Assembly: GCA_918797485.1 (NCBI GenBank)
Contig: CAKKNE010000005.1
Coordinates: forward strand, 4,216,001-4,280,000
Direction: 5' to 3'
DNA: 64,000 nt
DNA from: Pelagomonas calceolata
Taxonomy: Eukaryota
Shown: positions 11,462-64,000 of the stretch, one piece after another
How the letters are laid out: the number at the start of each line of letters is the position of its first letter
Numbering within the stretch: the stretch's first letter is position 1
Notes under the pieces: generated by a model
What the model saw: the letters and a program-made list of their open reading frames with translations, nothing else
The model's database searches: none
Told to the model about the DNA's origin: nothing
Translations under genes and position numbers: made by a program

Positions 11462-12031
11462 ATGGCACCTCTCAAGCTCGCACTCGTCGCCGCGTCGGCG
11501 GCCGCGCTGGCGCCCGCGTCGACGCCGCTCGTGAGCCGCAAGCTCGCGCTCCAGGAGTTCGGCATCGCGGCCGCCGGCGTGCTCGGCGGCGCGACGCTCT
11601 TCGCGCCGCCGGCCGAGGCGCTGACGCAGGCGGAGAAGGACGCGCTGTACCAGGAGTTCAAAGCCAAAAAAGAGCGGAAGCAGGACCTCCGCCGCGCGAA
11701 CTCCTACTCGGACAAGGCCCGCGGCGCGAACCTCGCCGGCTCGCTGCCCGACGAGGACCTGGCCGCCAAGCTCGCCGACAAGGCGGGCGCCAAGCAGATG
11801 AAGTCGCTCGCGCGCGAGGCGCCGGGCGCGAAGAAGCCGAAGGACATCCAGGGCAAGGACACCATCCGCACCGAGACGAAATCTTTGAAGGAGTTGGCGC
11901 GGGAGGGCCCCGTGGTCCAGAAATACGACGCCGGCCGGCCGCCAGTGCAGGAGACGATTTCCGATAGGGACCGCAAGGAGACGACGCGGAAGGAGCAGCG
12001 CGAGCTGAGCCGCAAGCTGACGGGGAAGTAG
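11462..12031 (+). CDS. Hypothetical plastid (possibly thylakoid-lumen) targeted protein
   Basis: Signal peptide plus ASAAALAP-type motif, then SRK-hydrophobic-PAEA second signal-like stretch. Lys-rich mature part, 189 aa. Confidence 0.7.
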   Translation: MAPLKLALVAASAAALAPASTPLVSRKLALQEFGIAAAGVLGGATLFAPPAEALTQAEKDALYQEFKAKKERKQDLRRANSYSDKARGANLAGSLPDEDLAAKLADKAGAKQMKSLAREAPGAKKPKDIQGKDTIRTETKSLKELAREGPVVQKYDAGRPPVQETISDRDRKETTRKEQRELSRKLTGK

Positions 12032-12633: not shown

Positions 12634-15600
12634 CTACGGATCAAAGACCTCGGGCGTGAACGGCGCCTTCGCGTCGTCGGCCGCCGTCTGGTGGCCCATG
12701 GCGATGTCCATCAGCGCCGCGTGGATCGCCGCGTACGGCAGGTGCCGCTCGAGGTACGACCGCGGCAAATTCCCGTCGACCGCCGCATTTTCAATGACCA
12801 TGTACTGCGCCCGCAGCGGCAAATCCATAAACTCCGGCGATTTTTCATGGAGTCTCATATGCGTCACGATGGACGACGCCGACGACACAAAGTCGGCGAC
12901 CATCTGTTGCGCCCTTTTGGGGGACTGAGGATCATCTAACGGCCCAGAAGAAACATGAGCCAAGGCTCGCAGCGCGAAGGAGATCACGTGGAGACCGGGC
13001 GAGCAGCACGCGAGGTCCGGATACCACCTCGCGGGTTTCCACGCGTCGGCAGACATCGCGACAGCCAAAGCCCAAGGGGTGTAGCGGAAATCCTCTGATG
13101 TTTCCACAACAGCAGCGGCCTCCCGATGCAAGTTCCCGTCCCGCTCGTAGTGCTCCACACCGAACGGTGAATCCGCCGTCAAAGCACGATAAAGGGGAGA
13201 ATCATAAGCGTCGTCGTCCACAGGGGGAAGATAAGTAGGGTCGTAGGGCTTCTTGGGGGGCGGCACGAGCCACGACGGTGCTGCCGCGGTACTGTTCGAC
13301 GAGCCTTGGGCGTCCAACGCTAGCAATGCCGAAGATAATAAGTGGGGACACGCTTCCCGCGAGACTCGCGCGTGCGACTCCCTCGTCAGTGCCCTTAAAG
13401 CTAGGATGTTGCCCAGTCTCACACAGGCAGCTAGTAACGCATCCAACACGCCGGCGGTCTTCAGGTCCTGGGAAGCTGGCACCCAGTCGCCTGTCAGACT
13501 ACCTTTCCGGACCCGCTCGAAGATCGGTCTTAATTGTTTGGCGGCGAGGGCCGTCTTGCACCTGCGTGTGTGATGCGGTGATGGCGTCTGCTCGATGGCG
13601 TAAACACAAGGACGCCGCGCACGCACCGCGCCATCTCGTCGACCGCGGCCCTTGTAAATGCGGCGTCCAAGCAGCGCGCACCGTCCGCACCCAACACCCT
13701 TAATAAAGCTTCGAGCTCGGGCCCCTGCAATACTTTCTCAGCTAAAGACGGCTCCTTCGGCAACACTTCATTCTGCTTTTTTTTGCTCTCGGGCGCTACG
13801 TACGTCGACCGCCAGGCCCTATGTTGTGGACAATACACTACATGAGCTGGCAAAGCTCTTATAATACGGACATATTGATCTGCCACTCTCTCAGCTAATA
13901 CAGAGCCGATCGGTTCTCCTCGAGCCCTATCAGCAGCAGACGGCAGATTCGGATCTTTCTGCCAGCCCGGCGGGCCACCCAGCATATCATACACATGACC
14001 GCAGTAGTCCACGTCGAAGTAGCCCGCAGCTCGCGCGCAGGCGCCCATGAGTGACGTGTAGGTCCGTTCCGCGGTCGTCGGTCGTGTGAATTGGTTTCCT
14101 GAGAAGAACGCGTTCGGGATCTCCCGGTCCAAGAAGGTGGTCACGGCTTGTCTCGCGTACTCCAGCGGTCGCAATCGGACGTCTCCGACGACGAGCGCGC
14201 CGCCGAACACGCCTCGCGCGTCTTCTCTGTCACTAAAATCCCAGCGCGCGACCTCCAGCAACGAAGCTAGGCGCGTCTCGGCGTTCACGAGCGGCTGGAT
14301 GGCCCGTTCGTTGCGCGGATGAGACTCATAACCAGCTAAAGGTGCTTCCTTGGGCTTCTCGAGACCCTTCCTCGCGGCTTCTCGCAACGCGGCTTCGCGC
14401 CGCTCCTGGCGGTACGCCGCCTCGACCGGTGCTATTTGAGCTGCCAATGATTCAAGACTTTTCGTGATGTTCGTCAGGCAGCCCTGGACACATGACGCGA
14501 ACCTATCTAAAACAGCTTCAGCTAACGACTTGGAATCGGATTCGAGCTGAATGGCGTCGGCCTCGCAGGCGCCGTGGCCCAAACATCGTCGCGCATATCT
14601 CGACGTTTCTAGGAGTGTTCTAACCAACCGAGACGGCCCTTCTGGCGCGGTCGTCGCGTCCAACCTTCTGAGGAGTTGGTTCCTGAAGGGCCACAACGCA
14701 CCGGCGTCGCAGTGCTCCAGCAACAAAGACCCGTCGGCCAACGACAAATGATCCAACATGACATTCGCCCAGCGGCAGAACGTCGCGAGGTCCCCTTGTA
14801 TTGGAGAACAAGATAGTCGAGCCTGAACTCTCCGCCAGTCTAGTTTTAATGTCAATATGGAAGACGCCTGGACAGCATCAGCGTTCAGCTCCCCCCCGCC
14901 AAACCGCCCGTCGCGCTCCGCCCGTAGCAACGTCTTGACGCATGCATCGACGTCGTTCACGGAAGCTACTCTAGATGCAAGTGAAGAAATCATCGAAGCG
15001 CAGTTCGCCGGCGCCGTCGACGAAGCCTTCCCAGCGAACTTTTGTAGTGCTTCGGCGTCGGCCTTCGACGCGTACGCTAAGTGGTAAGACGCGACCTTTT
15101 TGCGATCTCTTCTGAGTAGAGCCGCCAGGGCCACGAACGCGTCGGCCAGCTGCGGCAAGTCTGGACTTTCGAAGTGCTTTTCGTCGTAGTGCTTCATGCG
15201 ATGTTTCGGCGGTAACGCCGCGCCTCCTCTTGTTGGATCGTGCCGTAAGGCCCACAGCACTTCGTCCCGAGCTAGGGCGCAACACGCTAACACCAAAGGC
15301 GCCTTCGCCGTGCTCAACCCCGGCACGGCGACCAACAGCCCTTGGGCCACATCTAATTCACCGAGTAGATAAGCCCGTCTCTCCCGATGCTTCAGGCCAC
15401 TATGTAATACCGCGTTCTTCGACCACTCCTTGGCTAGTTTTGCGAGCTTGACGTCGCGCCGTTGCAGCGGGTAGTTCCGGGGCGGAAACCACTTCCCTAG
15501 AGCCTCCAACTCGCTATGGACATTTATCGTCGACGAGCGATACAGCTGCATGACTAACGCATCCTCGCAGGCCATCTTCGATACTAAGAGCGCAAGACCT

Positions 15601-22579: not shown

Positions 22580-25500
22580 CTAGGCCGGCGCGACGGAACC
22601 GTCGCCGCGGGCCGGCATCCGCAGGCACCAGAGCGCGCACGGGGCGCACACGCACCAGGTGACGAACATAAGTGCACACGCGACCTGCAGGCCCCAGTCG
22701 CTCCAGTAGAAGAACACGCCCCACTGGATGAGCTCCATGTCCCACGTGGTTCTTGTTGCTGGGCCGCGGGCGTTGTGCAGAGCTCTTGGGTCGTTGCGCC
22801 GACGCTTGGCATCGTTCGCGCACAAAGAGAGGGCCCCCAACACCAGATAACAGCCGAATTGGTAGCGGCAGCCGACGACCCACGCGTAGCGGTGGCACCC
22901 GAGGCACGTCGCCTCAAAGAAAGGCACCTTATCGAGTTCCTTCTGCGCCTCGTCGTCGGCCTCGGCCTGGAGCATCTCGGCGATCTCCCGGCCGAGCCGC
23001 GACTGCGCCAGACCCTCCTCGCCGCCGGCAATCCTCAAAAACACCTTCTCCATCGTCGCGCGCGCGAGCGAAAAGTCGATCACGCCGAGCCGCGCGCACG
23101 CGTCGTCGTCGAACGCGCGGAACGCGAGCGCCGGCGTCCGCCGCGGGTCGACGCCCGCGAGCTCGAGCGTCGCGATGTCCGCGTCCGCGGCGGCGACGTC
23201 GACGTCCGGCGACGAAAAGGCCTCGCGCGCGAACGCCACGAGGTCCGCAACGTGCGCGTCGTCCCGCGTCTCCAGGCGGCACGAGATTTCGTAGCCCGCC
23301 GCGTAGCGCTCCTTGAGCTCCTGCGGCGTCCCGATGCAGCGCATGGTGCCCTTGACCATGATGCCGACGCGGTCGCAGAGGAGATCGGCCTCGCCCATCG
23401 AGTGCGTCGTCAGGACGACGGCGCGGCCCTTCATCGTGACCTTGATGAGGTCCCAGAGATTCCTTTGCGCTCCTGGATCCAGGCCCGACGACGGCTCGTC
23501 CAGCAACACCACCGAGGGGCCGCCGACCAGCGCCACCGCGACCGCCAGCTTGCGCTTCATGCCCCCCGACAGGCGGCCCGCCGCTTTGTCGGCGTGGTCG
23601 GACAGGCCGACGACGGCGAGCGCTTGCTCCGCGGCATGGCGCGCGTCTCCTTCGATATCGACGCCCCGGAGCCGCGCGAAGAGACTCAGATGGTCTCGGC
23701 AGCTCAGGTGGTCCCAGAGGACGTTCTTTTGGTTGACGACGCCGAGCGCGCGCGCCGCCGCGTTCTCGAAGTCGAAAAGCACGCTCTTTCCCGCGACCCT
23801 GGCGTCCCCGGACGTCGGCTCGACGGCGCGGCAGACCATCGACACGGTCGTCGTCTTCCCGGCGCCGTTCGCGCCTAGTAAACCAAAGACCTGGCCCGTC
23901 GGCACGCCGAAGGCCGCGCACTGGACGGACTCGACGGCCGAACCGCCGAAGAACCGCGGCGGATATATCTTCCGCAGGTCCGAGACGACGAGGCCGTCGC
24001 GGTCCGCTGACTTGATGTCTCGCACGAGCGGCGGCGGGTACGGGTCGTCGCCCGGCGGCACGTTCCGCAGCATGGCGACGGTGTCACGCACGGCGGCGGA
24101 AAGGCTCATCCGCGGCTGCCGCGTCGGCGGCGCTTCCTCCTCCGGCTCGTCTACCACAATCTGGAAGTCGTCTTCGCCCGTCGACAGGGCGTCGCCCGCG
24201 CTCGCGGCGTCGCCCGCGCCGGTGAGCGCCGCGACGCGTGCGCGCTCCGCGGCGACGTCGTCGGGCATCGCGGTCGCGCGCGCCTTGGAGACACGCGTCT
24301 TCACCCAGGCGAGCGGGCGAAGGGCCCGTCGATCTTTAAAGAAGACTATTCCTTCATAAAGCACGATGTGGAACAAGGCGAAGATCACGGCCGCCCAGCC
24401 GCTCGGTAAAGGCGGGTCCGCGCGCTGCCGCCCCAGGGGCCCGTCGCCCGACGCCTCGAGAAATCCCGCGCGCTTCAGCTGCGGGTGGAAGGCCACCTTA
24501 CAGATCTGGACCGCCAAGTTGCCGAACGGCGTTGCGATCGATGCGAGCCACCCTATCTTACAGAGGAAATCTTGGCCGAGCATCTTGTCTGGATCGCTGG
24601 TGGCGACCCACCAGAGGCCCGCGAGCCCGGCCGGCGCCGCGCCGCCCAGGATAGCGATGAAAATGGGCGTCGACGCGACCGCGATGAGCGGAGAGTCGAA
24701 TGTCGTCGTCGCGAAGTGCGAGAAGCTCACGATCCCAGCGCTACAGAGCGGCAGTAAAATCCACAACCACGGCCAGCGTTCCATCCAGCGGCGGACGACA
24801 AATTTGGTTGCGTTCTGCCAGGCCCCGGCCCCGATGCCGTGGTCCCAGATGCTGCCGCAGTACCACTGCTTGATGGTATCGTAGGACTCGGAGCGCCACA
24901 GATCGTTCGGGTCTTCGTCGAAGCCCTGCGGGTACCTGCTTTTGAAAGCGTCCGCCATGGACTCGACGGTCGCATCGTAAGGCCCTAGGTCGAGCTGCTC
25001 CTTCCGAGCGGCCGCGTGGAGCTGCGCGTAGGTCGGCGCGCTGCTACATAACCGCTTGCGATATGCCATGCGCGTCGCCGCTAACATGAAAACGACGCAG
25101 ACCGAGCCGCCCACGAGTACCAGCGCGTCGCCGAGCCAGTTTCCCAGCCAGTACGTGAAGGTGTCGAGGCCCGAGACGGCCAATAGATTCCGCAGACCTC
25201 TGGCTCGCTCGCGGACGTAGGGCTCCACCACGAAGCCCGCCACAAGAAGATAGGCGGCCACCAGGACCCCCGCGACGAGGGTGTTGTAGTACTCCGCGTG
25301 TCTACTTTTGAAACCGAACGCCCGCTTTCCTTTGCCGGGCATTTGCGCGCGCACGACCAGCGGCATCGCCGCCGCCGCCACTTGGAGGAGCACCAGGGTC
25401 GTTCCATGTATCCCGGCGGAACAAAACGCTGAGGCGAAGACGGAGCCCAAAACTTCCACGACGAGGCCAACAAAGAATCCGGCGACGCCGCCGGCGGTCC

Positions 25501-28500
25501 GCGCCCGCGCGCGGCGGCCCGCCGCGCTCGCGGCCATGCGCCGAAACGTCTTTTTGCGCACGCTCAGGCATACGCTCCTGTGCGGAAATAAACCAGCGTT
25601 TTGGGTGCTTGGACTCTCCGCCCGTCGAAGAGTTAGAATTGAGCACTGAAAGCGCGCCAGCCCGTGAGCCATCCGACTAGGCATCCCGCGACCGCGCCGG
25701 CTGCCGACGTGGGTACGCCAAAGTACGGCCGGAGCCCAGCCTCGAGGCCGACCGCTACCGCCGTGGCTATCGCCCACGTCAGCCCTCCCGTAAAGGCGTG
25801 AAGAACGAAATGATGCTGCGCATTTAAACCACACACGCAAACGCCGAAAACGGAGCCGACGACGCATCCCGCGACCGAAAACGGCGCGGACAACGCGGCG
25901 CCTCCAATAAAACGTATGCCGCACTCCAAAGCAGCCAAGGCGAGTGTCGAAGCCGCAACGGCCGATCCGGCCGCCGTGCCCGCCGCCCACCCCCGGGGCG
26001 AATCCCGGCTTCCCTTTTCGGTCAAGCCCACAGCCAAGCCAACGATAAACCCCGAGGACAAAACCGCGGCGAGCACGGCGAAAGGCGTTGGCACGGTGAA
26101 AGTCGTGGCGCCGCCCTTGTCGCCGCGGGCGCGCTTGACGGCGCGCCGGAGCCCGCCGGGCAGCGCCGCGCCGCCGAGGACGAACTTTTTGATCCACACG
26201 AGGTCGTCTCTTATTTGCTGGAGCCTGTGTGGGAATCAAGAGGTGAGTCGAGGTCACTTTGATCTGTCTGCACCGCTGGGAGCCGAAACTGGACCACGGC
26301 CGCGACGAGCCTCCCCGCCGGCACCGGCTCGCCCGGCGCCGACGGCAGCAAGGCCCCGCCAACCAACGTCTCCGCCTCTACGGGCGCCGCCGCGCCCTCG
26401 ACCTGCTCGCCGACGGATATGAACACGTCCTCGAGCGACGTCGCCGTCACGGAAACGTCGACGAGACCCAAGCCGTCGGCCTCGGCCTCCAGCCCCTCGA
26501 AGAGAGCGGCGACGCGCGCCTTGGATGCGTGGATGGTGTACGTCGTCGTGACGTCGCGCGCGGAGTCCTCGAGGAGGGGGGCCTCGGCGCCGTCCGCCCA
26601 GTTCCGCGACGCGGAGAAGCTCGCGCCCCGGGTCGCGTTCAGGAGCGGGCTCTTAAATGATGAGGAAAAGCTTTTGGGTGTCGACCCGAGGAGCGGATTC
26701 GCGGCGTCCGTTTCGGTCGCCCGGCGGAGGTCCTCCTCGAGCTTCGAGGCCGCCGCTAGCTTGGCTTTGGGCATGTGCTGCGCAAAAACCGCTTTAAGTT
26801 GATCGCGCGCCGCGGCGGCCGTCGTCACCGCGATGTGAAGGCCGCCGGTCGACGTGCCGTCCGCTGCGTCGTCGCCCCCGCCGAAGTGCCGCTTCAGGAA
26901 AGATAGAGTGCCGCAGCACGTCACGCTCCCGGCCGCCATGATCGCCACCCGGTCCGCCAACGCTTCGGCCTCCTCCATGTGGTGCGTCGTGAGGAGCACC
27001 GACCGGTCGACGCGGACGTCGCGCAGCAGGGTCCAGACCTCGCGCCGCGCCACGGGGTCCATCCCCGCCGTCGGCTCGTCGAGGACCACGAGTCTGGACC
27101 CGCCGGTCAGCGCCGCGGCCATCATCACTTTGCGCTTCTGGCCGCCCGAGAGCTTGAGCGGAAACCCCTCGGCCATTTCCGTGAGGCGGAAGAGCTCCAG
27201 CAGGCCAGACGCCTCGTTCTCCGCTCTAGATTCCTCGACGCCCTTGAGCCGCGAGTAGAAAATGAGGTGCTCCCGGAGCGTGAGCCGAGGGAATAGCGCG
27301 TCGTGCTGCGGGCAGAAGCCGAGGAGCTGGCGGAGCCTATCCAAACCATCCGCGTCGGCTAAGGGGCCGAGCGTGCGGATCCCGAAGAAACTTGCGCTGC
27401 CGCCGTCGGGCGCCATTGCTCCAGTCATCATCGACATGGTGGTCGTCTTGCCCGCGCCGTTGTGACCCAGCAGGCAGAAAATCTCCGAGTCGCGGATCGC
27501 GAACGTCGCGTCGGATACGGCGACCTTCTTCCCGAAGACCTTCCGGAGGCCTCTTACCTGGACCGGCGCGTCGCTATCTTTATCATTCTCGAACCACTCG
27601 TCGTGGTCCACGAGCGGCGCCTTCTCCACGACCTCGTCCGGCGGCGGCGGTCGCCAGTACGCCTTCCGGAGGCAAAAGAGCAGGTCCTTGCCCTTGCCCC
27701 GCGCCGCCGACGTGGACACCTGGATCACGTACCACAGGACGGCCGCCCACAACACCACGGACACCATCAGCATGCAGTAGACCCCGGCCGTCCACGCGGA
27801 CTCGGGCCGCCAGCCCCGATCCTCAGTCTTCTCGTACCAGAAGGGCCAGACGTCCTCGCACATGAGGTGCTCGTCGGCGCAGGGCGCCGCCGTCAGCGAC
27901 TTCCTCGCCAGATGCTGCTCGAAGGCCTCGCGCCGCGGCCTCGGGGCTTTTTCCCAGCACTCTTTTCTACACTTCTCGCACGGGTAGCGCTCCCCCACAA
28001 AACCGTCGTCGACGAGCCAGCACCGCCAGCCCGCTCGTTTTTTCGTCGGGCTGAACGAGTCCACCAACAAATCGTAGGCGAACTGCGGCAGGAGCGCGCT
28101 TGCGAAGTGCGCGCGCGGCCGCGCCCGCAAGCGCCAGTTCGTTTTGTATCTCCGTTTCCCAACGTTCCAGGTCCGGAGCGGGGCCCAGAGCAAGTAGCAC
28201 CCGTGCAGGGCCGCGTGCAACAGGGGCGGGAGCCCCGCCGCGGCGATCTGCGACCGAAGGAGGCACGTGACCACCACGAAGGTCTGGAGGACGAGCGCCA
28301 GCAGAAAGAGCCAGTGGAGGGCGAAGAGCTCGAGGAACGCGGCGACCTCGAAACTCTTGCCGGCGCGCCGGAAGAGGCCCGGCGCGGCGCCCGCGGCGAT
28401 CGCGACGGCGACGCCGCCGCCGACGGCGACGCCCTCGACCAAAAAGGATGCGAGCCAGTAGGCCGCGTCGGCGCCGCCCGCCGCGCGCGTCGCCTCGCGC

Positions 28501-31500
28501 GTGCCTTGCGCAACGTCCCCCACCAACGCCGAGGCGACGACCTGGACCCACGGCACGAAGAACAACTGGAAGATGACGAGCTCGAAGTCGCCGTGGTTCG
28601 TGTCGAAGGTCGTCCGCTTGCGGGTCTTCGTGACGGCCGTCGGCGCGCTCGTCGCGCTCGTATCGCTTGCAACGGTGCTCCTCGCTAGCCGGTTCTCTTC
28701 CCTGGCGTTGTACAGTAACCACAGGACGCCGACGCCGAGGAGCGGGACGAATACTTGCTTGGCCAGCGCGGCGGTCGTGCGCTTTTTTATAATCCACGCC
28801 TTGCGCGCGAGGAGCGCGGTGCGTTCCGTGAGCGACGGCGGCTCGGCGGCGTGTTTCGGCGCGACGGCGCCGTCGCCCGCGGGCGCCGCCTCCGCGAGCG
28901 AGAAGAGCTGGCCCCTTTGGACGCCCTCCGGCACCTTGACCTTGATGCCATCGGGGCGGGTCACGATCGTGCCCGGCGGGCCCGGCGCCACGACCCAGGG
29001 GGCCGTCTGCTCCGTCCCGTCCTCCGCGGTGTAGACGGCCGCGGGCGGCCGCTTGACCAGGCATCGCCGGAAGGAGTCGCACAAGCAGTAGCAGTAGCGC
29101 GCGAGACAGGACCGCGCGGCCGCCGCTCCTTTCCTGAAGGGCCACGCGACGGCCGCGGCGCCGGCCGAAATTTTTCCCACGCACGGCGAGAGCTTCTCCA
29201 GAATTGGCGCGACGTGGCGTCCGAACCAGGAGCGCCGCTCGCAGAACTTCTCGTAGCGCGCGCGGACCTGCTCGCGGAACACGATGAGCAGCCCGCCGAA
29301 GAACAGGAAGAAAAAGAGCGCCGCGGCGCCCGCCCCTAATTGCCCGCTGAGCGTCACCGCGAGCACTACGGGAACGACCGTGACAAAAAGTAGCGCGGGC
29401 CGGCGCAGACAGAGCTCCAGACTCGCGAAGAACCAGCCGCCGCAGCACCAGAAGAGGCCCCACCGCGTCAGCTTCCCGTCCGCCGCCCAGTTCCGGATTT
29501 TCTGGAGCCGGGCGTAGCCCCAGCACGTCGGCTGCGATATGCAGCAGGCCCAGGCGACGCCCGCCGCCCAGAGACCCACGAGCGCCAGGATCGCCAGGAC
29601 CTGGCGCCAGGTCCACCACGTCGGGTCCGCGTCCCAGGCGATGGTCGCGTCGAAGCCGCAGACGTCCGGGATCGCCTCGCCGCCGCCCGCGTCGGGCCAC
29701 CGCTTCACCGCGTCCTTGAGCTTCTCGAAGAGGACCGGGTCGTGGCCGAGCTCGTCGCACGTCTTCCCGCAGGTCCCGAGGCAGCCGCTGTAGAACTCTC
29801 GCTCCGCGTCCTGCGCGCACGCGTCGGCCGCCGCCGCCGTCGGCCGCGCCTCGAGCCCGCTCCAGCGCCGCGGCGCGCGGGAAGAGGCCCAGAAGTGCGT
29901 CCACGGGTGCTCGACGTACGTCTCCGGTTGCTCATGTTCATGATGCTTTTCGTGATGCCGGTAGTACGGATCGCCCAGGGGTTCCACGCGGAAATCGGCG
30001 CCGTGCCACGGCGTCCGGTAGGGGGCCTCGCCGCTGATACTCGCAGATTCAGGAGCTCTGTCTGCGCAGCCGGCGCAAGTGTTTCTGCAGCCGGCGCAGC
30101 CGGCCTCGTCCCAGCGCTTCTTCTCCCGGAGCTGCGCGTGGAAGAAATCGCCGTCGGCGGTCACGACGCCGCAGGCCCGGATCCGCATCCGCTCGCCCTC
30201 CCACCGATTCTTCGCGGTGTGCGGCCAGGGCCGCCGACCCGGCAGGTCCGTACGCCACCACGACCGGTGGCAGGGGCTTCGGCCGTACCAGCCGAACCAG
30301 TAGTCCAGGAACGACCACCAGCGCCACTTGTGGGAGCGCACGTAGTACAGCGTCTGCGTGTCGGGGTCGCACCGCAGGTCGTCGCAGGCGTACGGCGCGC
30401 GCCGCGGCGAGAACCCGCAGGGCCGGTCGCGGACGTGCTCTATCCCCGCGGCGCGCCCGGTCCAGCCCGCGGTCCCCCCTTTTCCGTACAGCTCCTCGAT
30501 TTTGTGGGCCGGCACCGCGTCGTAGGCCGCGCCGAAGTACTTGAGGAGGACGTCGCACCGCCGCAGCCCGGTCTCGTGGAAGCAGACGGGGAGCGGCGCC
30601 ACGCAACCGGCCGGCGCCGTCGCGTTCGTGCAGCAGGCGCCGACGCCCGGCACGTAGTCCATGCCCGCGAGCCGGTGCCCGTCGGCGCAGTACCGCGCCG
30701 CGGCCGGCGGGCCGAAGGCGCGGAGCGCCACATCGGCTACATTGACGCCTTGGATGGGCGGTGCGACGCGCGAGCAGTCGTCGTTATAGTTCAGCCCAAG
30801 GTCGCCCGGGTCGCGGTCGACGACGTCCTCGAGGGCGGCGATCCGCGGCCCGCCGGGCTTGAACGAGCGGCAGGCGTCCGCGTTGCAGTCGCCGCGCCGC
30901 GTCGGCTTCGTGAACGGATCGGTTTTCCGTATCTCCCAATACTGGCCGCTCATGTCGTAGTGCGACCAGAAAGTAACTATTCTGGCGCGGCACTCGGTCT
31001 CGCGGAACCACTCGCCCTCGTCCCAGCCGTGGCGCGTCCCGTCGTCGACGATGTAGACCTTGCTCGTCGTGTTGGGGCAGTGGTCCGAAGAGTCGTCGCA
31101 GCAAAGGTAATGGAACTCGATGCCACCCGCTGCCCAGTGTGGGACAGGGAACTTCCCCTCGTTCGCGTGGGCCTCCCAGCACACCGCGCCCGCCCGGTCC
31201 ACTTCGGTGGCGGTCAACGCCTCCGCGTCGCCCTTGCAGCAGGTGAAGACGCAGGGCGCGTCCCCCGGCACGACCGTGTAGCCGTCCTCGCACACGGGGA
31301 CCTCGTTCGGCCCCGCGCAGCACTGGCCCCGGGGCGCTCGCGCGATCCCGTCCCAACAATTTTCGGATTGCATGGTCCAGGGCCGCTGCTCCGTGCATTC
31401 CGTGTGGTGGTCGCCGTGTTCGGTCCGTCGCGCCTTGCGCACCGAGCACGCGAGGTCGTCGACGCCGGGCCCGCAGGACCCGTCGTCGACGCCGCGGCGA

Positions 31501-34500
31501 ACGCGCGCGCACTCGCAGTCGGCGCTGAAGTCGCAGCAGTCGCCGCAGTCGTGGTACCCGACCGGGCACCACCCTTCGGGCTGGGACACGTTGTCGTGGT
31601 ACGCGAGGCTGCATATTTCCCAACCGCACACGAATGGGTAAGTACCATAGCGGCTGTCGTCGTTCCATCGTCCTGAGTCGGAGATCACGATGTAGGGCTC
31701 GTCGCCCCCCCCGTTGTTGGGCTCTCCGAATTCCCAGTTCTCGTAATCCCACGCCGTACCGTCCGACCAAGTCCACGTGCCCTCTTGGGCCGCATCGGAG
31801 CCCCCGATCCAGCATCCACCGTGACAAAGCGCCGCAACTGCCGCATTCTCGCTGGAGCTGTGGATTGACGCGAGGTCGTGATAGTGCGCGCGGCAGTACG
31901 CGCGCGCATCGTCAAAGCTCTTCGCTTGATCGACGTGCACGAAGGAGCCGCTGGTTGTAACACGTACGTTCTCCCCCTCGTGTATTGGTGCAAGCGTCGC
32001 CGTCGGCGTTGCTGTTGTCGGCGCCGGAGTCGGCGCGGGCGTCGCCGTCGGTGCTGCCGTTGTCGGCGCAGGAGTGGGCACGGGCTTGGCCCCGTTCCGC
32101 GAGCACAGGTACGACGACCGGCAGTTACGGCACCAGTAGTCAAAGAACTCAAAGCCCTCGTTTTCCGTCCAGCCGTGCGTGCCAAGCCAGCAGCCGGCTT
32201 CGTAGTCGCCGTTTGGCTCGCTGTAGCTCGACAACCGCATGAACCACGGATCCCCGGCAACGCTTTTCCAGCCGACGCCGCCGTACGTGGCCATAGCGTC
32301 GCTGTTCATCGCGTAGCCCTGGCACGAACCGCAGCCTCTCTCGTCGCGGTAAATGCCAACGAGTGGGTCATACCAGCCCGTCGCCTCGACGACGGCGAGC
32401 GCGTGCGCGTAGCTGCGCGGGACCCAGATGTCGAAGCCTGCCGGGCAGCTGTTCTCGTCCGTGTGGCGGCACGTATATTGGCCGTCCTCGACGAGCAGGA
32501 CGTCGTAGATCTCGCCGTCAGCCTCGACGCAGTAGCCCGTATGTCCTTCGTACTTAAATCTACCGGCCGAAGAGCAGTCCGACGGCCATGGCGCCGTCGG
32601 CGCGGAGGTAGGCGCTTCCGACCACGAGCAGATCTCCACAGAGTCCCAGGCGGCCTCGCAACCGTCGCAGTCCGCGCCGACGTAGGCATAGAGCGGTCCG
32701 GACGCGCCAATAGTGTCCGAGAGACTGAGGTCGCCACTGACTCCACTGACTTCCCCACAGCACTCGTACCTCTCCTCCTCGGGGCACCAATAATTCTGCC
32801 CGCCCGAGCGGGGCACGAAGCCCGCTACGCGACACCCGCGGGGCTCGTCCCAATGTTCCGACGCGCAACAGTCATCTCCGTAGTCGGTGCAGATGTCGTT
32901 TCGGCAGTCGATCGTCACCGTCTCCGCCTCGGTAGGGTCCCGAAACGTCACCGTCGACTCGTCGATCGTGATCTCGATGTCGTAGGTCTGCCGCGACGGA
33001 CTATAGGTGGACACGACGCCGGTCTGGCCGTAGATGGCCCGGTAATCGCAGTTCCACACGAACGTGACAAAGCCGGGGCGGTTGGACCACGGCGCGCCCG
33101 AATCAGTGCTTTGGGTGGAGACCTTTATGTAGTGGTCCGAACAATCGTCAGTCTTGTCGAGCGACCCGCTGATCATCAGCGGGGCCTCGATGATTGTATT
33201 CGCCGTGCGAATGTGCGCGCCATTGTTCGCGTTCTTGCAGACCAACACCCCGGCGCCGCTGAGCGCGCACTCGCCGTCGCCGCCGGCGGAAGACGTCCAC
33301 TGCGGGTCGAGGCTGGTCCCTTCGAAGTCGTCCGACACGCAGGTCGTGGTCGTCGGTGCAGCCGGCGGGGTCGGCCTGGGCGAGGGTGCGGGCGTGGGCC
33401 GCGGCTCCGCCAGTCGCGCCGTGCAACTACTATCGCAGGCGCAGTCCGCGTCGCGGTCGCAGCAATCGCCGCACTCGTAGTATCCTTCGGGGCACCGGGG
33501 CGTGCGCCATTCATGCGCGTAGGCGTCGCCACCGAGCCCGTCGCAGGAGCAGTCCGCGTCCTGGTCGCAGCAGTTGGCGCACGTGTAGTAGCCCGCGAGG
33601 CAGCCGTCGAAGTCCGTCGTTGGCTCGACGGCGCCCGGTTCCGTCGCGCAGCACTGGTACACCGCGTCCGGGTCCTCGCACGCCCCGTCGCGCGACACGC
33701 CGCCCGACCGGACGGCGTAGCCCGCGAGGCTGCACCCCGGCCGCTCGGGGAACGGCGCGCAGCAGTCCCACCCGTAGTCGGTGCAGATGTCGCTCCGGCA
33801 CGTCTCGTTCGCCGCCGGGCGGTTTCCGGCGGCGTCCGGGCACCCGAACTTGTACAATTGCCAGTCGTCCAGCGCCGCGATTCTCGCGGCGCAATGATCC
33901 GTGACGCAGCGACACGTGATGTCGGGACTCCAGTAGAAGTACTCGCCGTCGCACCCGGTCCCGGCGAGTGCGCGCACGGCGGCGGCGCACTCCTTGAGGC
34001 CCATGCGGGACCGCGCGCCGTCGTAATAGGACCAGGGATGGTCGATGATCTCGTACGCGCCCTCGCTGATTTGTCCGAGGCGGGCGGTGCGCGCGCAGGC
34101 GCGGTCGAAGACCGGGCCGACGTAGCTGGGCGACGAACAGTTCCCGCTGCCCGCGCACGTGATTATGACTCCCTGCGTGTCGTAGAGGTTCGAGGCCGGG
34201 AGGGCCTCGGGGGCGTGGCGCGCGTCGCACGTGAGGTAGCCCAGGGTCCCGTCGTGGCTATAGACCTCCGGCTCGAGGCGGCCGAGCGGCTCGAACACGC
34301 CGCTGCAATGTTCGTCCTTCGCGCACCTCTCCAGCAAAAACGGGACGAAGTCGTCCATGTACGGATCGTTTGCCGCGAGGGGCGTGCAGCGACGGTCAAA
34401 GGTGTAGGCGTACGGCCAGCGACAAGGAAGCGACAGCTGCCGGCTGCACTTCGAGTTGTCGCACACCGTCGGTGGCTCGGGCAGCTGCGGGATCCACGGC

Positions 34501-34889
34501 GCGTAGTCGCCGCAGCAGTACAAGAAGGAGTGGCCGCAGCTCGCCGCATCTGGGTACCGCACCGGATCATGATGGGTGTGGCAGGGATGCGGGTCGGGCG
34601 CGTGCTGGACGCTGTGCAGACTGCAGAGTGGTCCGTTCGCCCATTTCCCGTACTGAAGCCACTCGTCGCTGCCGTCCGACACGGGCACCCACGTGTCCGA
34701 GCTGTAAACGCCGCCATCGAACGGCGCACCGGTCGGACAGAGCTCTTCGGACGAGCAGAGGCCCTGGCCGCGGGACTCGCACTCCTCGCGCGCGGCGTTC
34801 CACGACACGGATGGCCGTTCACCGGCGGGGCTCGGTCGAGCGGCACTACTGACGAGCGCCGCGGCGACGACGACGCGACCGAGCCGCAT
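22580..34889 (-). CDS. Giant ABCA-family transporter with N-terminal Cys-rich / C-type lectin ectodomain, 3 exons (34889-26284, 26224-25658, 25577-22580), ~4056 aa
   Basis: Signal peptide. CTLD with WIG, EPN and WND. ABCA start LLARKAWIIKKR. NBD1 GHNGAGKTT/LSGGQ/LDEPT and NBD2 GANGAGKTT/LSGGM/LDEPS. Two GC-AG introns give a total of 12171 nt, divisible by 3. Confidence 0.8.
25578..25657 (-). mobile_element. GC-AG intron, 80 nt, introner-derived
   Basis: GCGCGCTT...GCACCC...CGCTGGTTTATTTCCGCACAG (TIR-like end). Restores LTGW|SVCLS. Confidence 0.7.
26225..26283 (-). mobile_element. GC-AG intron, 59 nt, introner-derived
   Basis: GCTCCCAG+CGGTGCAGACAGATCAA...TTGATTCCCACACAG|GCTCCAGC. Near-intact TSD and right TIR matching 14/15. 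Confidence 0.8.
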
Positions 34890-35074
34890 CGTCACCGGCG
34901 CTGCTCACTCCGCTTGTGCTTGGTTGGCACGCTGCCCCCGTCCTACGAGTCGCAGTGCGCTTGATGGTCCTTGCTCCGCTTGCATGGGCACGGCACGCTG
35001 CTCACCAATCGCACTGCCTGCCAGTTGGCACGGCCGGCTGCCCCGTAATACAAAAAGCAGCGCTCTGAATAATA

Positions 35075-44624: not shown

Positions 44625-46174
44625 ATGCGCGCATTGCTACTGCTCGGCACAGCCTCGGCAGCAGCAGCCCTCTCGAACGCCACGCTACACGCCATCGCCG
44701 CGGACGCTATTTGGCCGGAAGTAGCGACAGGATGCATTTTGAGAGCAGACTTCCTTAACCACGTAGTAGAACTAGAAACGAGCACGGGCGAGACGCGGAC
44801 GGTGCTCTCGAAGGAGAGCCCAATCCCACCGGTCATCCCGGGGCCGCCGCAGCTCTGTGCTCTCAAGAACGACCATGATAATGATGGAAAACAGAGGTCT
44901 GTGTTAACCATAGCTACTGATCTGAAGTATTTGAGACCGTGGTCGCATTTCCTGTGGAACAAGCTGTGCTACTGTAAGCGGGAGGGCCTGGATTTCTTAC
45001 TGTTTCTGGGCAACGTCGACACGGCCCACGCGCCGAATCCGAAATGCCTGTCCGGTAAAGCAGGAAACCACTGGATTAAGGCCGTCGCGATCCACGCTGC
45101 CTTATCTCGCGCGGGCCAGGACGAAGTTTTAGTGCTAGATACGGACGCCATCTTCCGCAGGGAGTCCTTCTCAAGGCACGGCCTGGCGTCCTGTTATTTC
45201 GGGGTCATGGAGGACGCCCAGGCTTCTGTGGCGGCCGGCGCCGAGCATTATCAAGTCTTCGTCAATGCCGCCGTGTTGCTCGTAAGAGAGACTCCGTGGA
45301 CGCGGGCTTTGTTAAGACTGTGGTGGCGCGACCGGTGCGGCGAGAAGGACCAGCTCATTCTGTGGCACTCGCTGCTGACGCTCTGGAATAAAGATTCAAA
45401 TCTGAACTACGACGGCGAATTGTTAGCTTATACATCTAGAGACTACAAGAACAAGAGCTCGACGTCTACATATAAACACGCTAGGCGGGTGGTCACGTTC
45501 TGTGTGGAAATCAACCAGTGCGACGGGTGCACAATTCTTCGCTAAGTCATTTCTCGGCGATGACGCGGCCGTCCTGGCTCGGTCGAGCGGCGAGGAACCG
45601 GCATCGCCACGCCATCGAGCAGGCGTCGCGTCGATGGCGTGGAGGTCCGCGCGACGATTCAGCACGAACGTGCCGTAAAATTTTGATTTCCACACAGGTC
45701 ACGTTCGACTACGCGCGGCAATTGCGGCCCGCGCACTTCGTGAAGTCGCCGGTGGCGCGTTCGTGGCCGGCGTCCTACTTGAGAGTGTTCCACGCCGTCG
45801 CCGCGACTCGGTGACGGCGCGGCGGCCTCGGTGCGTCGCGATTGTCCCTATTCCGCACAGGTGCCCACCCGATCTACCACCTCGCAGCCGACAGTCTATT
45901 AGATTTCCCGGACTTCGCGCTCCTGCCGCAGACGGCGCTGCCGCCTCCGAAACGGTGCCCTGGGCCCGGGCTGCCGTCCTTGCGGAGCAACGCCGCTCGG
46001 CGGAAGAAGGGCGCGCGCGGCGCCGGGCCGGCGTCGTTCCTCGCGCACACGAAGAACCGGCCGGCCTTCGACTGCTGTCCTGCTGGTAACGTCGACGCGG
46101 CCGCGCCGTGCGTCGCCGTGAACCTCGAGCGGTCGACGCACCGCAAGGGCGAGTCGACGCCGCACCGTCGTTAG
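44625..46174 (+). CDS. Glycosyltransferase, GT34 (GMA12/MNN10)-like, 3 exons (44625-45491, 45698-45758, 45861-46174), ~413 aa
   Basis: Signal peptide, NKLCYC, HWIK, VLVLDTDAIF (DxD), VNAAVLLVR.T.W, DQ. Confidence 0.8.
45492..45705 (+). mobile_element. Intact introner: non-autonomous TIR element 45500-45697 with 8-bp TSD, spliced as intron 45492-45697
   Basis: TSD GTCACGTT at 45492-45499 and 45698-45705. Perfect TIRs CTGTGTGGAAATCAA and TTGATTTCCACACAG. Internal hairpin ACGCCATCGA...TCGATGGCGT. Confidence 0.95.
45759..45860 (+). other. GT-AG intron, 102 nt (probably old introner)
   Basis: GTTCGTGG...CCTATTCCGCACAG|GT. The spliced junction VAR|AHPIYHL matches the uninterrupted paralogous copy at 48463. 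Confidence 0.75.
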
Positions 46175-47993: not shown

Positions 47994-48462
47994 GCCGCGC
48001 GCTGCGTGAAATAGCCATGGTTAAAGGTGATGATGAAAATCCAAGTTTTGTGGCGGCGGAGCTGCGTCTTTTGTGGCGCGCGGCGGTCTCGCAGCGTGGC
48101 GCTGCCGTCTCGCGCCACTGCCAGCGCTACATCACGCTAGCGTTTGTGTGAGGCGAGCGGCGGTCGAGGGACGGCAGTCGATTGCGATGCGCCGCGAGGG
48201 CCAATGAAGACGAGATTTCGAGGTGACGCTTATGACGCTGCAGGCGCACTGTGGGTCTGATCTTAGCCTCGGCGGGCTCGGAGATCTCCCGGTTGTGGCG
48301 TTCTTTGAGAAGCAAACTGCCACAAAAGGGCACAGCACCATGCAGGCAACATCGGCCCAGGGAGGATACGTATGCGCCGGGATTGAGAGGCCTATCGAGT
48401 CTTCGAGCACTCCGCCCTACTCCTAGCAGAGTCGTAGCGAGGGGCGACGCCACACTAGCTAT

Positions 48463-48780
48463 GTCGCGCGCGCGCACCCGATCTACCACCTCGCGGCCGA
48501 CCGTTTACTAGACTTCCCCGACTTCGCGCTCCTGCCGCAGACGGCGCTGCCTTCTCCGAAACGGTGCCCTGGGCCCGAGCTGCCGTCCTTGCGAAGCAAC
48601 GCCGCGCGGCGGAAGAAGGGCGCGCGCGGCGCCGGGCCGGCGTCGTTCCTCGCGCACACGAAGAACCGGCCGGCCTTCGACTGCTGCCCTGCTGGTAACG
48701 TCGACGCGGGCGCGCCGTGCGTCGCCGTGAACCTCGAGCGGTCGACGCACCGCAAGGGCGAGTCGACGCCGCACCGTTAA
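48463..48780 (+). pseudogene. Orphan duplicate of the GT34 gene's last exon
   Basis: Near-identical to 45861-46174 and open to its own TAA. In-frame TAG at 48424 upstream and no start codon. Confidence 0.75.
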
Positions 48781-48796
48781 CTGTCACATTGTTATT

Positions 48797-49693
48797 CTAA
48801 CTAGACGACGACGACGAACGGGAGCGTTTCTTCTTTTTCTTCGACCTCTTCTTCGACTTCTTCTCGTGCTTGCGCTTCTTCGGGATGCGGTCGGCGTCGC
48901 GAGGCGGCGGCACCGGCACCGGCGCCGACGCGACGACGGCAGGTCGGGGTGCGCGCGGCGCCGCGGCGCGCACGGCGACGGCGTCCACCCGGGGCGCCAC
49001 GGCGGGGGCCGGCGCCGGCGCCGCGGGTTGTACGACCGCGCGCGCGGCGGCCAGCAGCGCGTCGTCGCCGTCGCGCGGCCCGCCGTAGCGTCGCGCGGCG
49101 GCGACGTCACTCGCGACGCCCTCGGCGAGCTGGTGCGGCTTCGCCGTGACGCCTTCGAGCAGCCCGACCCGCGCGCGAGCTCTCCCTCGGTACGCGTCGC
49201 CGTTCGTCGCGTCGAGGGCGATGGCGTCTCCAAACCTCCGCACGGCGTCGGCCCAGCGGCCGTGTGTGAGGTCATCCTCCGCGCGCGCCGCGCGCTGCCG
49301 CGACCACCTTTGATTTTGAAGCGCGCGCGCGGTGTCGTAGTAGTCCTCCGTTGGGATGTCCAGCTCGCCCTCAAAAAGAACGTGCGACCGCCGCGCGTCC
49401 AGCCCGCCCAGCGCCGCGCACTGGCGCGCGAAGGCGCCGGGCGCCGCCTGGCGCCGGTCTCGTAGTAGTGCATCTAAGGCCTTGGCGCCGGCGTCACTCG
49501 CAAAGCCGCCGGGCGGCTCGGGAGCCTTGGCGTGGAGCCGCGTCCAGCTCGCGAAGCAACTTGAGGATGTGTCCGGCGGATTGGGAGGAGGCGGCACGAG
49601 GTCCGCATCCAGCAGAAACGGTCGCAGCCGCCGTACTCTTGCGCGCCAGTCGGCGTCGTCCTCGACCTCGCCGTCCGAGGCGTCGTCGGCCAT
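48797..49693 (-). CDS. TPR-containing protein with Lys/Ser-rich tail
   Basis: GRWADAVRRFGDAIALDATNGDAYRGRARA (TPR), C-terminal KKRKHEKKSKKRSKKKKKRSRSSSS. Confidence 0.75.
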   Translation of the reverse strand: MADDASDGEVEDDADWRARVRRLRPFLLDADLVPPPPNPPDTSSSCFASWTRLHAKAPEPPGGFASDAGAKALDALLRDRRQAAPGAFARQCAALGGLDARRSHVLFEGELDIPTEDYYDTARALQNQRWSRQRAARAEDDLTHGRWADAVRRFGDAIALDATNGDAYRGRARARVGLLEGVTAKPHQLAEGVASDVAAARRYGGPRDGDDALLAAARAVVQPAAPAPAPAVAPRVDAVAVRAAAPRAPRPAVVASAPVPVPPPRDADRIPKKRKHEKKSKKRSKKKKKRSRSSSSSS

Positions 49694-61024: not shown

Positions 61025-64000
61025 TTACATGATCGCGCACAGCAGCGACGACCGGTTCGAGAGCGGCATGCCCCAGGCGTTGCGCGGAATCGCCTTGAGG
61101 CGCGCGAGCTCGGCCTCTTCCGCCCTTCTATCCATCTCCTCCTGAGATATAATATTCCCGTCTTCGTCGATGCGTCCTTCCAATTCCGCGAGTTTGCGAT
61201 CGCGCACCGCCTCGAGCGAATCCGCATTCATATCAAACGCCTCCGCAAGTCTTTGGTCGGCCGCGACCTTCTTGTCTCTACTACGGGCCGCGGCTCTCTG
61301 TTCGAGCTTCTTGTCCAATGCTATGGCGATGGCCGAGTCCCACTCGTCCAACGAGATGATCCCGTCCTTGCTCGTATCCAGCTCCCAGAGCATCGGGCCC
61401 AATCTAGCCGGCACGCAGAGGTACTGCAAATGTTCGTTGCCACAAGATATGAGGAAGCGCGACACCCGCTTCTGGTTGATGCCCGCCATGAGCTCCTCCT
61501 TGTCGAGCGTCCACGAGTCGTCGGCGTCGATCATCTCAAAGACCTCTCTGGCTTTCGTCTGGAAGTCGATGGCGAACTCGTTGTCCGCGTCGCGGTCCTT
61601 CTGGCGCTCGTCGAGCAGCTTCGTGAGCGAGCTACCGACCGCTTCCGTCCACTCGTCTTTACTGATGCTCCCGTCGTCGTCGGTATCCATCTCTGACAGG
61701 GCCTTGTCGAGGAGCTCCGGATTCAATAGGTCTTGCAGCTCCGGCAGGGGGCATTTTACCACAAACTCGATCACGTCCTCGTCCTCGCCGCAGGCTTTGA
61801 CGAGCTCCTCCTTCGACAGCGTCCCATTCATGTCTTCATCAATAAGGTCGTAGACGATGACCGCCATGTCGAGAAATTCGTCTATGAACCTGTGCGCAAA
61901 TCAACCAGTGAGTCGGGTGCTCGCGTCGATGGCGTCAAGGTCGACGCGAAGATTCAGCACGAAGGCGCCGTGGCATTTTGATTTATGCACAGACCGAGAC
62001 TCATCGTCGTTGCCGCGAGCGAGCGCGTGCCGCTCCAAGATAGCCTCCAAGGATCTATCACTCAGAGCCTTCCACTCGTCTCGGTCCAGTTCGCCGTCTG
62101 AATTGGTATCACATTCCTTCATCGCGGCTTGCACGCGTGGAGGCACCAAAAATTCGGAAAGGACTGGGTTCCGGCAAGTCTTGATGAACCTCAAAACATC
62201 GGGCTTGCCCTTGAGCGCGAGCATGATTTCGGGAAGGCTGAGCGTCCCTGAGCCATCTTCATCTATCAGGTCGAAGATCTTCGCGCAGTTCGCGCGGAAG
62301 TCCTTGGCCAGCAGGTCGGCCTGCGGGGAAACAACACCAGTGAGCCGCGCGGGTCTCGAGACGAGAATCGACCGCCACGCCATCGAGCAGACGGCGCGTC
62401 GATGGCGTACACGCTCGGCAACAGTAGAAGACCGCCCGTCGAGGTCGAACGAAAGGACCTTTGAGACGCCGCGACCGCGACCTGCTCCTGCGCGTCCCTT
62501 TCCCTCTTAGCCTTCAGCCGCCGCTTAATCACGGAATCGTTCGTGTCCATGGTCCTGCTCTTGGCCGCCAACCGCGAGGCGAGCGACTCCTTCTGGACCA
62601 CCACTGGCGCGTCCTTGACCCTCTTGCGCCGGGGCGCGCCCTTGGGCTGCGGCGGCTTCAAATCCTCGGGAGTGAGTTCGAGCTCGCCCCGCCGGTAGGC
62701 CGCGAGCATGTCACGTAACGCGCGGTCGCGGACGGGTACAATTTTGTCGAGGCCCGGCACGCCCGTCGAGTTGATGTTCCGCGAGTGGTTGAACCATGCA
62801 TAAAACTCCGGGAACGACACCGCGCCGGACCGATCGACATCGACCTGCCGGAACGCATCCCGCAACTCATCGCGAGTAGGAGGCTCGTCGACGCCCAACA
62901 ATAACCCGTTCTTCATCATCGCGATGAACTCCTGCCGGTCGATCTCTCCACTATTATCAATATCATACATCGAGAACGCGCACTGCAGCACGTCCTTCAA
63001 TTTGTCGTCGCGCGTCGGGAGCTGGGCCGCGGCCTTCATCCGCTCCGACTCCCTATTGTTAGCGGCCTTCTCGAACTCTTTCAGTTCATTGGGATACTTG
63101 TCCTTCAAAACGCGCGAGAGCCAGGCGTCGCGCGCTTGCTGGACCGCACTACTGAGTTCTTGGCGAGCCAGTGCTTGTTTCTGAATCACTTCGCTCCTCT
63201 TGATATTGCCGATCTCTCCACTAAGCCACTCCCTTGCTTCGGTCTGGGCTATTGACGTGTGAATCGCTCGCTCGCCCAAGGCTGATAAATATTTATGTCC
63301 AAGCTCCATCAGTACCCTAGCGCGTTGCAATCGCTCCACTCTGTTCATCAAATGCTCCCTAGCTGCTACTTGACGACGACAGTGCGCCAAGCAACACGCG
63401 CCCACCGCGTTCAGCATATCCACGGCGTTCTCCGTCCTAAAGACCTTCTCGATGGCGCCCCTACCGAGCTTATCCAATGATATGAACATCTTGTCGCGCT
63501 TCTTGTTGGCTATCCTACCCTTCTCGGCCTTGGTGATCAAAATCTTCATGTCTCTTCTCCTTAATATCTGTTGCCGGTGCACGCGCACGGCTAACGTACG
63601 CAATTCGAGTGCCGTGATCGCCCGGGCCTTCTCCGCGGCATGGTACTGCGCCGACACCTCGCGAATGCGTATTAATTCAATCTGCATGATCACCCACGTC
63701 GCGCGCATGTTCTCTCCCCTTTCACTGAGGAAGGTGTGCGCCGCGAGTAGATCCGCGTTCAAGGACAGACACTTCTTGCCGCGCCACGTCAAATATTCAA
63801 AGGCCGCTTTGCGTCTAAAATGCAGCTCCCAGGCCTTGGCCGGGGCGGCCTTGCCTTGGATGAGGGCCGTCTTCTGCTCTCGGGCCGCCCTTGCCCTAAT
63901 CATGAGGTAGCGGTGCGCGTCGTTCCGGTTCTCTCGATGTCTTCTCGCTCGTCCGACGCGCGCCTTGCACCACTGGTAGGCCTTCTGCTTCTTCGTCCAG
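61025..64000 (-). CDS. Large EF-hand protein, 5'-partial (exons >64000-62482, 62320-62001, 61889-61025)
   Basis: Multiple DxDxxGxxxxxE loops. The frame is open to the window end. Splicing gives AQEQ|ADLLAK and GNDDE|FIDEFL. C-terminal CAIM is CaaX-like. Confidence 0.85.
61890..62000 (-). mobile_element. GT-AG intron, 111 nt: internally deleted introner in reverse orientation to its host gene
   Basis: + strand CTGTGCGCAAATCAACCAGTG...TCGATGGCGT...GATTCAGCACGAA...TTTTGATTTATGCACAG is homologous to 45500-45697. The donor lies exactly 8 nt outside the TIR. Confidence 0.9.
62321..62481 (-). mobile_element. GT-AG intron, 161 nt, introner-derived
   Basis: + strand CTGCGGGGAAACAACACCAGTGAG...CGCCACGCCATCGAGCAGACGGCGCGTCGATGGCGT is homologous to the intact element. 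Confidence 0.85.

Follow-up and report, generated by a model that had tools for sequence, protein, structure and literature searches.

One family of short inverted-repeat elements makes introns in both orientations in Pelagomonas calceolata. This is confirmed in the 64,000-nucleotide stretch of contig CAKKNE010000005.1 analyzed here (the window), since one copy at position 45500 is spliced forward and another at 61890 is spliced backward relative to their transcripts. We estimate a probability of about 0.93 that 61890-62000 is a spliced intron derived from a backward copy of such an element, likely a non-autonomous DNA transposon (introner) that would have generated an 8-bp target site duplication (TSD) on insertion. 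Both ends of the element read CAG outward, so the end lying downstream in the transcript becomes the splice acceptor; the donor is the first GT or GC of the 8-nt segment outside the other terminal inverted repeat (TIR), and splicing takes out the element together with these 8 nt, so that the protein keeps its length.

Splicing of the 61890-62000 intron and its host gene

The features of the locus are as follows.

61025..63999, minus strand: host gene, of which 900 codons lie in the window and the 5' end beyond it, encoding a multi-EF-hand protein
61882..61889, minus strand: exonic 8-mer starting with GT, the expected second TSD copy, matching the intronic copy at 2 of 8 positions
61890..62000, minus strand: GT-AG intron of 111 nt, phase 2, composed of an 8-nt donor segment and the reverse-oriented element (144 junction reads, open spliced frame)
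61890..61904, minus strand: left TIR, which supplies the acceptor CAG on the gene strand
61890..61992, plus strand: introner/MITE copy B, 103 bp, collinear with copy A and lacking consensus positions 32-131 and differing by 12.6% from the consensus of the family profile
61978..61992, plus strand: right TIR, 13/15 complementary to the left TIR, on the donor side with its CAG unused
61993..62000, minus strand: intronic 8-mer opening with the GT donor, the expected intronic TSD copy
62321..62481, minus strand: intron of 161 nt in the same EF-hand gene, an older reverse-oriented copy that has lost its donor-side TIR (64 junction reads)

The RNA evidence consists of four stranded polyA runs under one sample label, with junctions taken from 15 joints listed of 87. 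Reads linking 61889 to 62001 with CT..AC ends on the plus strand were found in all four runs (29+34+35+46 = 144), every first mate lying on the plus strand, and the junction check suggested by the initial annotation at 62001/61889 thus returned reads at precisely the predicted bases. The same reads demonstrate its further claim that the opposite TIR supplies the acceptor AG in this minus-strand host, as the CAG of the left TIR is the one used. The GT donor at 62000 lies exactly 8 nt beyond the end of the right TIR at 61992, again as had been claimed. EF-hand domains are encoded in three separate minus-strand frames across the host region, and excision of 61890-62000 and 62321-62481 yields a single open frame of 900 codons. 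The 61890 junction is ungapped against seven of nine homologues (P0001, P0002, P0004-P0007, and P0009), which include Aureococcus proteins at about 41% identity, while P0008 is gapped there and P0003 aligned only as repeats. The nearest named homologues of the host protein are from Aureococcus anophagefferens, at about 41-45% identity.

Collinearity of the forward and backward copies

The forward copy forms the following intron.

45492..45697, plus strand: intron of 206 nt made of the 8-bp TSD and forward copy A (151 junction reads)

Copy A occupies 45500-45697 and has a perfect 15-bp TIR (15/15), and its TSD, which starts with GT, matches at 8 of 8 positions (45492-45499 and 45698-45705). Reads linking 45491 to 45698 define the GT..AG intron of 206 nt (46+41+28+36 = 151), with every first mate on the minus strand in all four polyA runs. 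When aligned to copy A in the same plus-strand orientation, copy B has 86 of 103 aligned bases identical and a single 95-bp gap, in full agreement with the earlier description of the two elements as collinear with about 95 bp deleted. The global alignment score is 111, whereas the reverse complement reaches 29 and the best of 2000 base shuffles 0.8. On both points that could have told against the initial annotation, namely the RNA boundaries and the significance of this alignment, the data fall on its side.

An element with TIRs and an internal palindrome could look reverse-oriented by illusion, and the internal hairpin does give weaker matches on the other strand. With the ends removed, though, the alignment of copies A and B still scores 74 versus 22 for the reverse complement (shuffle maximum 34), and a profile lacking the TIRs (43 metagenome copies) finds the interior of copy B at 36.4 bits in the orientation opposite to the transcript and lists no forward match. 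As the reads are also stranded, we rejected an illusory orientation, to which we assign practically no probability.

Several other read-level features were observed around copy A and elsewhere in the window. The gene with copy A has a second spliced GT-AG intron, 45759-45860, which is located 61 nt downstream of the copy, ends in a TIR-like CAG, and matches the family weakly in reverse (5.2 versus -1.4 bits); this gene possibly carries both orientations. The left end of copy A, 45500-45532, attracts more than 1000 cross-mapped reads per run, mostly from another locus in which the left end of a reverse copy is followed by an exon starting with GT and, 12 nt on, an ATG; the loose ends of these reads stop about 55-59 nt into the element, as if a strong transcript started within the copy. 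The source locus of the reads cross-mapped to 45500-45532 was not found. At 11484-11572, a minority of reads skip 84 or 87 nt in frame, with non-GT-AG ends and short edge repeats, representing either template switching or a GC intron. At 48067-48969, reads in three runs connect 48969 backward to 48067 across 17 intervening letters.

Putative target site duplication at copy B

The initial annotation noted that the TSD of the 61890 copy has diverged, and the two 8-mers indeed agree at only 2 of 8 positions, more mismatch than the 12.6% divergence of the element predicts. A shift of 1-2 nt does not rescue the duplication, as no shift gives more than three matches. Three or fewer TSD matches occur in 11 of the 92 complete metagenome copies listed (see below), one of which is explained by a shift.

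Such a mismatch at exact 8-nt spacing could mean that copy B came as a whole intron, donor 8-mer included, via reverse splicing or ectopic gene conversion, in which case the intronic 8-mer was never a local duplicate. The exonic 8-mer encodes a Phe that Aureococcus homologues share and thus seems to be ancestral, as expected for such an arrival, and the tail of low-match copies (the 11 of 92 listed) points the same way, as do two individual copies: L088 shares the deletion of copy B and has a 3/8 TSD match, and L044 has the same intronic 8-mer. Against this, the exon still starts with GT, as a TSD would, and the identity with the L044 8-mer has a chance of about 0.03 after the fact; L044 has other breakpoints and was rejected as the parent of copy B. 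Pairs of identical 8-mers among the copies listed are no more frequent than expected (1 observed versus 0.9 expected), positions 29-33 are a frequent starting point of deletions (26 of 78 among the copies listed), and low-match metagenome copies may be assembly chimeras. Moreover, copy B belongs to the most diverged part of the family (8 of 69 listed equal or exceed its divergence), and more diverged copies tend weakly to have poorer TSD matches (rho -0.24, p 0.046, copies listed). Thus, decay with small indels is the simplest reading, and arrival of copy B as a whole intron is very unlikely. The broader idea that some transposon-born introns move on as whole introns with the 8-nt donor of the parent site, copy B being a second-generation case, is likewise one we hold to be quite improbable; if the orphan donor of copy B did reflect such a transfer, RNA-mediated intron spread would become testable.

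The poor TSD match could also indicate that the element landed in or overwrote an older intron whose splice sites were independent of TIR and TSD. This we consider extremely unlikely, since the acceptor is formed by the last three TIR bases and a donor at offset 8 is the family rule (66 of 69 copies listed). We favour insertion of the element itself, probably followed by decay of its target duplication.

The element family in metagenomes

The family was sampled in metagenomes with an exact 21-base pattern of the left end, which returned at least 123 matches at no fewer than 122 loci. Copies with a right TIR and flanks were taken as complete, and there are 92 of these among the matches listed, at 92 distinct flank pairs. 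The sample mixes strains, possibly includes chimeric contigs, and, being chosen by an intact left end, favours reverse orientation among old copies. Across the 92 complete copies among the matches listed, family similarity reaches the intron boundaries and stops short of the exons. A perfect duplication of 8 bp is present in 41 of the 92 copies listed; no other length between 4 and 12 bp is perfect in more than one of them. Exactly 203 bp, which corresponds to a 211-nt intron (203 + 8), is the length of 15 of the 92 copies listed, and the longest complete copy has 294 bp, with roughly 600 bases searched per match.

Three interior types, comprising 69, 16, and 7 of the 92 copies listed (for example, L005, L009, and L012), share the TIR region and the 203-bp full length and have interiors about 50-55% alike. 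The common length despite differing interiors suggests a length constraint, perhaps nucleosome-sized. Among the main-type copies listed (L002-L122), 26 of 78 cases of internal deletion have their start at consensus positions 29-33, like that of copy B, and the deletion of L088 is the same as in copy B.

An 8-bp TSD fits a MITE of the hAT superfamily but is common to other superfamilies, and the CTGTG start of the family TIR does not seem to fit the typical hAT start motif; the family, which has an 8-bp TSD, was not assigned to hAT. No transposase was found, no empty-site allele was seen, and viral contigs gave no match to the 21-nt left-end pattern.

Orientation tally and constraint on splice signals

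Gene strand at the metagenome copies was called from the flanks by a codon model trained on nine window genes, which was right for strand and frame in 81 of 81 held-out windows. The model scored 83 of the 92 copies listed (nine have short flanks), calling 69 and leaving 14 unclear. Among the 69 called copies listed, 32 are forward and 37 reverse relative to the gene (p 0.63), and the forward/reverse counts by interior type are 24/25, 5/8, and 3/4. On the gene strand, 66 of the 69 called copies listed have a candidate donor at offset 8 (GT in 51, GC in 15) and three have neither GT nor GC there; the corresponding count on the other strand is 20/69, and at nine other offsets no more than 13/69. 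These results, together with the splicing of both window copies, support the proposal of the initial annotation that TIR symmetry (CTG...CAG) lets either orientation splice. The symmetry provides the acceptor alone; hence, the target duplication must still begin with GT or GC on the gene strand.

The AG at the right end is retained in 32 of 32 forward versus 29 of 37 reverse copies among those called and listed (Fisher p 0.006); the terminal AG is invariant in the acceptor role only. Changes of the neighbouring A at -4 and at -6 are about as frequent in forward as in reverse copies among those called and listed, and the overall right-TIR mismatch is alike between orientations in the complete copies listed (1.06 v 1.32, p 0.40). 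Among the matches listed, 31 are without a scored right TIR, of which 11 were skipped, two (L001 and L036) were left out, and 18 were examined; these include 14 reverse copies, two forward copies that both still end in CAG, and two unclear cases. Intron phases 0/1/2 are skewed alike in the strand-called copies listed (L002-L122), at 19/3/10 for forward and 18/6/13 for reverse.

The branch point was not located within the copies listed. Conservation of the TTGAT within the TIR is similar in forward and reverse copies (A at -12 in 30/32 forward and 32/37 reverse copies listed) and therefore gives no branch-point footprint. At element position 22 of the main interior type, an A, which would give CTCAC in reverse copies, occurs in three reverse and zero forward copies listed (C or T in 11 and 19); this does not demonstrate a branch-point adaptation of reverse copies, because the two other types normally have A there, whichever their orientation. 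Folding predicts TIR pairing in the intron RNA for either strand (z about -2.8); because this pairing follows from the TIR itself, it was discarded as evidence of a role in splicing.

Confirmed and probable introner-derived introns elsewhere in the window

The initial annotation had assigned the same reverse orientation to introns at 25578, 26225, and 62321. For 62321, this is confirmed: reads linking 62320 to 62482 with CT..AC ends (15+10+12+27 = 64) have their first mates on the plus strand, and the interior matches the TIR-less profile at 30.8 bits in reverse versus 11.3 forward, although the donor-side TIR is unrecognisable. For the other two, the assignment stands in part, on frame continuity and weaker matches.

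25578..25657, minus strand: likely intron in an ABC-transporter gene, with a reverse left end as acceptor and a candidate GC donor at 25657 or 25669 (frame continuity)
26225..26283, minus strand: likely intron in the same ABC-transporter gene, with a weak reverse left end and a candidate donor at 26283 (GC) or 26289 (GT) (frame continuity)

Without splicing, the minus-strand ABC frames run into stops at 26211 and 25633, and all four donor combinations tried for the two introns produce one open frame of 4056-4062 codons that unites two ABC_tran domains. The family left end is matched in reverse at 14.3 bits (E 7.5e-4) at 25578 and at 5.4 bits (E 0.32) at 26225. The candidate donors are not placed 8 nt from a clear TIR, and the eight joints listed there include no junction for either intron; read depth is low and many reads have other letters, as from paralogues. 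Given the strengths of these left-end matches, the sequence makes 25578 a likely reverse-oriented remnant and 26225 a weakly supported one. The host region, 22580-34904 on the minus strand, is likely a single gene of about 4060 codons; its product would have two ABC_tran domains, an ABC-2 membrane domain, and, within a long cysteine-rich N-terminal portion, a C-type lectin domain. The reads hint at close paralogues.

Three further spliced introns, 8899-9075, 9597-9699, and 13562-13626, contain remnants of the internal hairpin that are forward to the transcript (11.6, 14.4, and 6.5 bits, respectively) and have 2, 3, and 5 of 8 TSD matches; we interpret them as older introner introns. Two sites on the minus strand, 35140 and 43481, have TIR-like CAG ends followed by exon-like sequence starting with GT, and represent candidate old introner introns located outside the read-covered stretches.

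Proposed mechanism

The element was presumably inserted by a cut-and-paste transposase making an 8-bp staggered cut, and selection would have retained those insertions whose target starts with GT or GC on the gene strand. Later, only the donor and the acceptor side would be constrained, so that the donor-side TIR, the interior, and the intronic TSD copy would erode. Such decay would account for the TSD and interior of 61890, and would have extended in 62321 to the donor-side TIR as well. Formation of introns in both orientations is the classic argument for introner movement as DNA and against reverse splicing, and the use of either orientation doubles the usable target sites.

Comparison with known introner systems

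Introner elements of Aureococcus anophagefferens were reportedly described by Huff, Zilberman and Roy in 2016, and insertion in nucleosome linkers is one criterion of introners of this type. The family studied here shares with them a multi-copy nature, TIRs, an 8-bp TSD at the family level, an acceptor from the element with a donor from the TSD, and use of either orientation. In the accessible text of the relevant reports, Aureococcus introners form introns in either orientation (10.1101/2020.10.14.339549; PMC10228655), carry one splice site and take the other from the TSD, have TIRs and direct repeats, and give introns of about 210 nt (PMC9481584); their host is also a pelagophyte. The host here is a pelagophyte by protein homology but not Aureococcus, whose homologues of the host protein are about 41-45% identical, and the two families are likened by their described features and not by sequence identity.

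For P. calceolata itself, Supplementary Note 3 of the genome report describes 956 putative introners with GT and GC donors, an AG acceptor, a conserved TIR, and an intron peak near 210 bp, in a genome of 63% GC (PMC9481584). The present family is similar in its GT/GC donors, AG, and TIR, in its full length of 203 + 8 = 211 nt, and in the GC content of the window (57-72% in 2-kb bins), and it is probably the published one, matched to it by description rather than by sequence logo. GC content, intron length, and marine occurrence fit P. calceolata as the host. We found no orientation tally for P. calceolata in the accessible text, where the readable text of five supplements, figures aside, has zero matches to "orientation" and "target site" (PMC9481584).

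In the dinoflagellate Polarella glacialis, the introner-like element (ILE) classes 6, 8, and 10, as far as they are described in the accessible text, likewise combine a donor from an 8-nt TSD with an acceptor from the element end and insert in either orientation (10.1101/2020.10.14.339549). They differ in allowing GA donors (GHN6) and in a bias toward one orientation, whereas the family described here has GT/GC donors and no bias (32 v 37, p 0.63, copies listed). Since either-orientation introns with 8-nt TSDs are in print for both Aureococcus and Polarella, the idea is not new, and two-way intron formation here is real but already known. Beyond these systems, the Pelagomonas-like family modestly adds read-level proof and a near-even orientation tally, as well as an internal control in which the terminal AG is under selection only as acceptor, and it illustrates the erosion of introners into ordinary-looking introns.
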